The translations under genes and the position numbers were made by a program. Shown here piece by piece: positions 4,911-5,156 of a stretch of DNA of 64,000 nt (positions are counted from its first letter, which is position 1; each line of letters opens with the position of its first letter). The stretch comes from a virus, in the UHGV virus genome UHGV-1374678. The stretch is one strand, 5' to 3'. The notes beneath the pieces were generated by a model. It saw nothing but the letters and a program-made list of their open reading frames with translations, was not told where the DNA came from and did not search any database.

Positions 4911-5156
4911 ATGAATTTCGGTAAAGCTATTGAAGCATTAAAAGACGGTAAGAAGGTAACTCGTAAAGGTTGGAATGGGAAAGGAATGTATTTATTCCTG
5001 TGTTTTCCTGCATCAATTGAACCAAAAGCCGAGAATGTAGAGATTTATTCTGCCAGACAAAGTATTGCAATTCGAACAGTAGATAGTTCTATTGTTTTTG
5101 GGTGGAATCCTTCTCAGGAAGATATGCTTGCGGAAGATTGGGGTATTGTAGAATAA
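4911..5156 (+). CDS. DUF2829-like small protein (candidate Tad2-type anti-Thoeris sponge)
   Basis: N-terminal [28 protein letters not shown] matches, as I recall it, the DUF2829 signature (M.F..A...LK.GKKV.R.GWNG). 81 aa, typical size. Confidence 0.5.
   Translation: [81 protein letters not shown]

Follow-up and report, generated by a model that had tools for sequence, protein, structure and literature searches.

The Tad2 family of sponge proteins is known to counter the signals of type I, II and IV Thoeris, of the cyclic-oligonucleotide-based antiphage signalling system (CBASS) and of the pyrimidine cyclase system for antiphage resistance (Pycsar), and 2,783 non-redundant homologs have been described in IMG/VR. 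In the pocket of its founding member, SPO1 Tad2, a sponge for glycocyclic ADP-ribose (gcADPR), W25 and W73 make van der Waals contacts with the ligand, N26 and D79 bind phosphates and hydroxyls, T78 makes one hydrogen bond to the adenine, I63 and T65 pack on the base, and waters are held by D67, H71 and S76. The equivalent residues of HgmTad2 are W21, N22, G23, W87, L88 and D93, with T92 bonding the adenine, and binding is lost in the mutants W21A/N22A and S90A/T92A/D93A. Four of five Tad2 homologs tested earlier inhibited Thoeris, including one from a prophage of Ruminococcus callidus, a member of the gut Clostridia. A larger set is available in Table S2 of Hadary et al. (bioRxiv 10.1101/2025.08.24.671296), which gives sequences and phenotypes against seven systems for 18 Tad2 homologs and 3 Tad2 controls. 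Here we analyzed a gene, called tad2 below, at positions 4911..5156 on the plus strand of a 64,000-nucleotide stretch of the virus genome UHGV-1374678 (hereafter the window), which an initial annotation had described as a DUF2829-like early gene and a possible Tad2-type sponge for gcADPR. The product is a member of the Tad2 family, and we estimate a probability of about 75% that it is a sponge for an ADP-ribose (ADPR)-type signal of Thoeris.

The assignment to this common family, which has thousands of members, comes from both sequence and fold. Pfam PF11195 (Tad2-like/DUF2829), whose current Pfam name is "Tad2-like, Thoeris anti-defense 2-like domain", matched the product at 90.8 bits (E = 8.1e-26; gathering cutoff, 25 bits), with residues 1-80 spanning positions 1-73 of the 73-position model, so that the DUF2829 membership proposed in the initial annotation is borne out. 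The product also fell into PHROGs families 1048 and 872, neither of which has an assigned function, and homologs were numerous: the protein collection contains 1286 at E <= 1e-5, and phage genome records with a homolog number 313. The best match in the PDB by phmmer was ModTad2 (8V3E/9EIB; E = 5e-19, 48% identity), further matches were HgmTad2/AcrIIA7 (8KBI), SptTad2 (8WJD) and SPO1 Tad2 (8SME/8WJE), and no protein other than Tad2 matched in the PDB sequence search below E = 0.1. An AlphaFold2 monomer model built from 117 aligned sequences (mean predicted local distance difference test score, 93.8; predicted template modelling score, 0.81) has helices at residues 3-11 and 69-73 and strands at 15-18, 27-31, 51-55 and 77-80, that is, the N-terminal helix, the small antiparallel sheet and the short helix before the final strand that make up the Tad2 fold. 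When this model was compared with 350,542 PDB chains by Foldseek, all 24 matches at E <= 1e-3 were Tad2-family chains and the next match had an E value of 0.76. In the comparison with SPO1 Tad2 that the initial annotation had suggested, the model matches this protein, together with ModTad2, HgmTad2 and SptTad2 (template modelling (TM) scores, 0.70-0.81).

The gene consists of 81 codons and a stop and encodes a protein of 81 residues and 9.1 kDa (isoelectric point, 5.4) with a single PF11195 domain; the length and the N-terminus are exactly those given in the initial annotation. A strong, canonical Shine-Dalgarno sequence read from the DNA, AAAGGAG (4897..4903, +), is separated from the ATG by 7 nucleotides and shares bases with the stop codon (4896-4898) of the preceding open reading frame (ORF) of 109 residues, indicating that both genes are tightly packed in one operon. 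On the opposite strand at tad2 the sole ORF was a 47-codon chance frame. Compared with members of its own clade, tad2 differs at 33-44 of 243 nucleotides, with synonymous divergence (dS) of 0.7-1.3, near saturation, nonsynonymous divergence (dN) of only 0.05-0.08 and a dN/dS ratio of 0.05-0.10, and the pocket residues are invariant within the clade. Because of the Pfam match, the 1286 homologs and this ratio, tad2 is a genuine gene under strong purifying selection and not a chance ORF.

The codons of the pocket lie in two segments. The Trp-Asn-Gly (WNG) loop, W21-N22-G23 (4971..4979, +), corresponds to W25/N26 of SPO1 Tad2 and W21/N22/G23 of HgmTad2, which serve ligand stacking and diphosphate binding, and W65-N66-P67-S68-Q69-E70-D71 (5103..5123, +) corresponds to the second half of the ADPR pocket (W73...S76-Q77-T78-D79 in SPO1 Tad2). 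In the alignment, SPO1 I63, T65, D67, W73, S76 and D79 are matched by I54, T56, D58, W65, S68 and D71, and only two pocket positions differ from SPO1 Tad2: H71 is replaced by F63, and the adenine-bonding T78 by E70 (codon GAA, 5118-5120, +). W21, N22, G23, W87, S90 and D93 of HgmTad2 all have equivalents. Family-wide residue frequencies, here and below, were taken from the 120 best homologs together with pattern scans of IMG/VR; among the 120, the WNG loop is strongly conserved (W in 116, N in 117, G in 115) and W65, S68 and D71 are invariant or nearly so, while F63 is unique to the tad2 product, its clade mates carrying Val. A short, variable insertion, residues 31-51 (5001..5063, +), is located between beta2 and the next core strand; in one alignment it has 21 residues, as compared with 26 in SPO1 Tad2, 43 in HgmTad2 and 20 in Tad2_82, and AlphaFold2 modelled it as coil without an alpha2 helix.

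By analogy with the solved Tad2 proteins, four copies of the product would assemble into a homotetramer with two symmetric pockets at the interfaces of non-dimeric protomers, each lined by the WNG loop, W65, S68 and D71. After infection each pocket would capture one ADP-ribose-derived alarm signal made by a TIR-domain (Thoeris) protein of the host, and the captured signal could then not activate the Thoeris effector, allowing the phage cycle to be completed. The gene would be expressed before or with DNA replication, which fits its location at the end of an accessory block and before the replication genes. As for the ligand, we put 3'cADPR (1''-3' gcADPR) of type I Thoeris at a little under an even chance; another ADPR-type signal, such as histidine-ADPR (His-ADPR), N7-cyclic ADPR (N7-cADPR) or an undescribed one, is a tentative option and keeps its weight because the adenine-contact Thr is Glu.

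Several points weigh against the sponge reading. Sponge homologs are not always active: about a quarter of those tested (19 of 84; for Tad2 homologs, 5 of 18) failed to inhibit any of the seven systems (bioRxiv 10.1101/2025.08.24.671296). Among the solved structures the closest is that of ModTad2, a protein that binds His-ADPR but not gcADPR. E70 stands where two gcADPR co-crystal studies show a Thr (SPO1 T78, HgmTad2 T92) to be the only side chain hydrogen-bonded directly to adenine; E70 also brings a carboxylate into a kind of pocket that in sponges is typically positive; and F63 takes the place of SPO1 H71, a water-mediated contact. Finally, the two tested homologs with bulky residues at position 70, Tad2_73 (Val) and Tad2_78 (Gln), failed against type I Thoeris, although both differ elsewhere too, one by a head domain, the other by residues inserted in the WNG loop. 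The gcADPR sponge of the initial annotation is thus retained in its family, its fold and most of its ADPR-pocket residues, while gcADPR itself is a possible ligand among others, since the adenine-contact Thr is Glu, ModTad2 binds His-ADPR instead and the family covers the several kinds of signal named above.

The tested proteins nearest to the tad2 product are divided between Thoeris types. The nearest, Tad2_82 (52% identity), is followed by MoTad2 (48%), Tad2_70 (46%), SPO1 Tad2 (44%) and Tad2_83 (42%). Tad2_82 inhibits type I Thoeris only, MoTad2 acts against type II Thoeris and against Pycsar yet leaves type I uninhibited, Tad2_70 inhibits type I and Pycsar, and SPO1 Tad2 and Tad2_83 inhibit type I (bioRxiv 10.1101/2025.08.24.671296), so that the nearest type I binder and the nearest type II binder are almost equally close. 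In canonical type I binders the sequence of the pocket strand is S-Q-[T/A]-D, and in type II binders it is S-[V/I/S]-[S/G]-D. The longer type II signature W-[TV]-P-S-[VIS]-[SG]-D, shared by MoTad2, Tad2_68 and Tad2_76, does not fit the W-N-P-S-Q-E-D of the tad2 product, but the signature is an ad hoc one from three or four sequences and the broad-range Tad2_71 (SQTD) also blocks type II, which leaves room for His-ADPR binding. At 11 core columns the type-I-only binders differ from the type-II-only ones; there the product agrees with type I at 5, including the pocket-adjacent G64 and Q69, with type II at 2 and with neither at 4. Taken together, and E70 apart, these sequence comparisons lean toward a type I-like pocket.

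A possible alternative, which we hold distinctly below an even chance, is that the product is a Tad2 tetramer whose specificity was switched, T70E having retuned the pocket from 3'cADPR to His-ADPR, to N7-cADPR or to a TIR product of gut Lachnospiraceae not yet described; it overlaps the sponge reading in the branch of other ADPR-type and unknown ligands. No pocket position varies more than position 70, where in the tested set Thr or Ala goes with type I inhibition, Ser or Gly with type II and Val or Gln with neither; none of the tested Tad2 proteins of Table S2 has Glu there. Among the 120 homologs the position is T in 94, E in 10, A in 8, V in 4, Q in 2, and S and G in 1 each, and all 10 Glu-70 sequences belong to the tad2 product's own clade. 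Glu is common to the whole clade (P0001-P0009 and P0013, 86-96% identical) and is fixed across a dS of about 1, with the codon GAA in every member, whereas relatives at 70-88% identity have the canonical Thr, encoded by ACA or ACT, two nucleotide changes apart. Between the outgroup P0010 and the clade member P0003, only two differences, K19S and T70E, were seen over residues 17-77. In the DNA-pattern scan of IMG/VR the 10-residue SQED-type motif was rare, occurring on 5 contigs as compared with at least 120 for SQTDMLAEDW. The five genes encode a clade mate (80 of 81 residues identical), two different tandem-DUF2829 proteins, a ModTad2-like protein and a long-insertion form. At least 4-5 unrelated backgrounds carry the motif, and the DNA on its flanks shares only 45-64% identity with that of tad2. 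The P0010-like gene among them has greater identity to its Thr-bearing sister (90%) than to tad2 (80%). Because of these dissimilar flanks and the nearness of the P0010-like gene to its Thr sister, Glu-70 is judged from the sequences to have arisen independently at least three or four times. Recent recombination was considered as the source of the SQED segment and ruled out, the flanks being only 45-64% identical between backgrounds.

Against such a switch, Tad2_82 with Ala at this position still blocks type I Thoeris, so that the Thr side chain is dispensable; Thr-70 is indeed no absolute requirement, active sponges having Ala (Tad2_82) or Ser (MoTad2). The carboxylate of Glu could moreover accept a hydrogen bond from the N6 amine of adenine, Q69 and G64 match the type I binders, and the correlation between residue and phenotype comes from very few sequences with confounding differences.

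It is unlikely that the product is a sponge for cyclic nucleotides, binding CBASS cyclic dinucleotides or the cyclic UMP and cyclic CMP (cUMP/cCMP) of Pycsar at the V-dimer (A-C) interface as HgmTad2, SptTad2 and MoTad2 do. MoTad2, the best PDB match, binds cUMP/cCMP at this interface, Tad2_70 inhibits Pycsar, and the short-insertion proteins Tad2_71, 75 and 79 were positive against E. albertii CBASS in plaque assays. However, cyclic dinucleotide binding by HgmTad2 and SptTad2 needs an insertion of 35-41 residues between beta2 and beta5, and the insertion of the tad2 product has 21 residues with no helix or beta-hairpin in the model. The cyclic dinucleotide contacts R31 and N85 of HgmTad2 are C31 and F63 here, and S47 and F70 lie in the missing insertion. 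SPO1 Tad2, whose insertion is longer, binds no cyclic dinucleotide, and Tad2_82, whose insertion is similar, inhibits neither CBASS nor Pycsar.

We regard it as still less probable that the product has no current anti-defence activity, being a DUF2829 protein with another role or none, for example a decayed sponge. The inactive Tad2 homologs mentioned above and a clade known from sequence alone would allow this, but the strong purifying selection, with pocket positions including E70 unchanged across a dS of about 1, the pocket complete save for the residues matching Thr and His of SPO1 Tad2, the kept place in an accessory block and the sponge-gene neighbour in the relative P0010 speak for a working protein. 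Least probable of all is an anti-CRISPR function in which a headless DUF2829 tetramer binds stem-loops of the trans-activating CRISPR RNA (tracrRNA) in a positive groove and prevents assembly of the Cas9 guide. In its favour, AcrIIA7 belongs to DUF2829 and its headless form binds tracrRNA and single-guide RNA, the lysines essential to its RNA binding, K58, K66 and K71, align with K11, K19 and K24 of the likewise headless tad2 product, and some database homologs are labelled "anti-CRISPR protein". Against it, K11 and K24 discriminate little, both being invariant, or close to it, throughout the family, proven sponges included; K19 is Ser, Thr or Val in the product's own clade; the product has no extended domain to carry K93 and R101; its identity to AcrIIA7/HgmTad2 amounts to just 35%; and HgmTad2 and the further homologs assayed in an independent study showed no anti-Cas9 activity.

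Upstream of tad2 the window has a run of six small ORFs (63-109 residues; 3072..4898, +) without functional annotation in the PHROGs and Pfam scans, in agreement with the setting among small genes of no known function given in the initial annotation. Together with tad2 they form an accessory block between a tRNA cluster and the replication module. One of them (4147-4455, +) encodes a lipoprotein-type signal peptide (MKKKIAIIIVALSICVGMAGC) and weakly matches DUF6440; a DUF6440 gene is located just downstream of tad2 in the related phages L001, L008 and L009, whereas in the window it is upstream. The tRNA cluster (1693-2797, +) consists of Ile(TAT), Gln(TTG), Leu(TAA) and a fourth tRNA (2727-2797) whose anticodon loop is abnormal according to ARAGORN (2 nucleotides, "gc"), although Rfam still recognizes it as a tRNA at 42 bits. 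On the other side, an AT-rich gap of 260 nucleotides separates tad2 from an SPbeta-like module for replication and nucleotide metabolism (AAA_24/Sak4-like, helicase, primase-like, DHH, DNA polymerase III alpha, ERCC4, HD, FolD, ThyX, guanylate kinase and NT5C). Inside this gap, 39 nucleotides past the tad2 stop, lies a short GC-containing hairpin (GAACCAAATCGGTTC; 5195..5209, no strand assigned), a possible operon end; its T-run is confined to the minus-strand side, which makes it no more than a weak candidate for the terminator of tad2. The terminator scan found 3 where 0.5 were expected. The promoter scan was no richer than shuffled sequence (12 found, 14.9 expected), and the label of early gene therefore derives from position.

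The window is identical over 15,156 nucleotides to part of a 176,197-bp metagenomic contig (L005). When window positions 3000-9000 were compared with 50,697 phage records by megablast, no match was obtained, indicating that there is no close cultured relative. The DnaE-type polymerase is nearest to those of uncultured phages from human faeces (55% and 39%), then to those of large Clostridioides and Clostridium phages (about 35%). In related gut phages of about 100-180 kb with 89-93% identical Tad2, the gene keeps its position, as the last of the small-ORF run just upstream of the replication module, and its immediate neighbours vary, as is typical of an accessory, exchangeable locus. The relative P0010, whose core is 82% identical, has directly after its tad2 a gene with the PF24729 Acb2/Tad1 hairpin, that is, of another family of immune-signal sponges. 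IS605-family OrfB/TnpB genes (Cas12f1-like_TNB) are found within a few kb of tad2 in two relatives (L009:4264-5367 and L093:10139-11242), and these insertions mark the region as an insertion hotspot. In L008, a few kb upstream of tad2 (L008:543-2471), we observed an adenylosuccinate synthetase gene and a microbial PARG-like (poly-ADP-ribose glycohydrolase, PF10021) gene, the latter of which may be a further ADP-ribose-directed counter-defence. A 93% identical Tad2 is encoded on a contig of 335,896 bp (L001; ENA ERZ27288107 k141_216722), about twice the size of the others of the group (176-179 kb), and this contig may either have been assembled as a concatemer or come from a much larger relative.

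The host can be approached through another relative, P0011, which is in an integrated prophage beside the bacterial genes MiaB, MutS and MutL. The MutS is 96% identical to that of a Dorea metagenome-assembled genome and 80-87% identical to those of other Lachnospiraceae, from which the best inference is a host among the gut Clostridia (Lachnospiraceae), an inference that concerns this Tad2 lineage by way of the prophage and not the window's own phage. A literature search on the prevalence of Thoeris in Lachnospiraceae yielded no usable data.

About 5 kb upstream of tad2 there is a second, divergent Tad2-like gene, of which the window holds the C-terminal 68 codons (6..212, +); it starts 222 nucleotides before the window, and the full gene is at L005:4868-5302. 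Its product of 144 residues has an N-terminal minimal DUF2829 (PF11195, 35.3 bits; PHROG 6670) that is without the WNG loop, having SEWRKD instead, and without the W...SQTD strand, followed by an unannotated C-terminal domain of about 88 residues. Since Tad2 domains are known in fusions with other sponge domains (Acb4 and Sequestin), this domain might be a ligand-binding module. In tandem-domain relatives (L092:5001-5815, and L099 and L096 in IMG/VR) a degenerate DUF2829 precedes the Tad2 core in one polypeptide of 133-169 residues; in L092 a PF24729 Acb2/Tad1-hairpin gene comes directly after the tandem gene, upstream of which lie a reverse transcriptase gene (RVT_1) and an AAA_25/DnaB_C gene.

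Three structured RNAs in the window scored above the Rfam gathering threshold: RAGATH-27 (1291-1374, +; 85.1 bits), FuFi-1 (285-457, minus strand; 66.7 bits) and drum RNA (47085-47193, minus strand; 51.8 bits). The function of all three RNA families is unknown; RAGATH-27 and FuFi-1 share the accessory region with both Tad2-like genes and the tRNA cluster. A 214-residue ORF at 623-1267 (+) matched PHROG 1491, "tail fiber protein" (E = 3e-56), with no Pfam match, and this label looks doubtful because the ORF is in the accessory region, far from the minus-strand structural genes. That structural block is interrupted by a region at 54000-58100 that has a GC content of 0.28-0.29 as compared with about 0.33 and four plus-strand ORFs, of which only a DUF2513 gene (57567-58031) could be annotated; the region looks like another accessory or moron insertion.

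With these results, a "hypothetical protein" of an uncultured gut phage of about 176 kb can be labelled a Tad2-family immune-signal sponge, implying that the host, probably one of the Lachnospiraceae, uses TIR/Thoeris-type signalling immunity. Apart from E70 the finding is routine, the family having thousands of members, several crystal structures and its own Pfam name. The wider interest is in the Thr-to-Glu replacement at the adenine contact, a natural pocket variant that is both conserved and recurrent. A speculative and rather unlikely extension is that the S-Q-E-D Tad2 proteins form a repeatedly evolved specificity class, in which Glu retunes the pocket to another signal, possibly an undescribed TIR signal of gut Lachnospiraceae, or away from a host decoy. 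If this were true, the 81-residue protein could be used as a capture reagent to identify that molecule, just as Tad1 and ModTad2 served to identify 3'cADPR and His-ADPR. Because the residues that set sponge specificity are now being mapped one by one and new immune signals have come to light through sponges, the E70 variant, which is short and cheap to synthesise, would be a reasonable addition to a specificity panel.

Of the described systems, the nearest tested homolog is Tad2_82 (IMGVR_UViG_3300029495_000054), which agrees with the tad2 product at 41 of 61 core positions, has nearly the same length (80 residues), shares an 18-residue sequence in the N-terminal half and the GW-x-x-SQ-x-DML pocket strand, and has an insertion of 20 residues where the product has 21, although the insertion sequences are unrelated and the motif is SQAD in place of SQED. 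SPO1 Tad2 (Gp34.65; 8SME/8SMF/8SMG/8WJE) belongs to the same Pfam family and fold (TM about 0.71-0.81) and is likewise a short single-domain protein without the cyclic dinucleotide-binding insertion, but identity to it is only 44% and the tad2 product is 5 residues shorter in the beta2-beta3 insertion; SPO1 infects Bacillus, whereas the phage of the window probably infects gut Clostridia. ModTad2/MoTad2, from a Myroides odoratus prophage (8V3E apo, 9EIB with His-ADPR), is the best PDB match by both sequence and Foldseek and is also a short single-domain protein, with His-ADPR in the A-B interface pocket; it differs in having S-V-S-D and FAYYVP where the product has S-Q-E-D and YLFLCFP, lacks activity against type I Thoeris, and has a second pocket that binds cUMP/cCMP. 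HgmTad2/AcrIIA7 (8KBI-8KBM, 8WJC, 9KZR) and SptTad2 (8WJD), at 34-35% identity, have the same DUF2829 core, with W21, N22 and G23 numbered identically to those of the tad2 product; their 35-41-residue insertion serves to bind cGG or cGAMP, and AcrIIA7 at full length has a head domain of 48 residues as well, whereas the tad2 product has neither.

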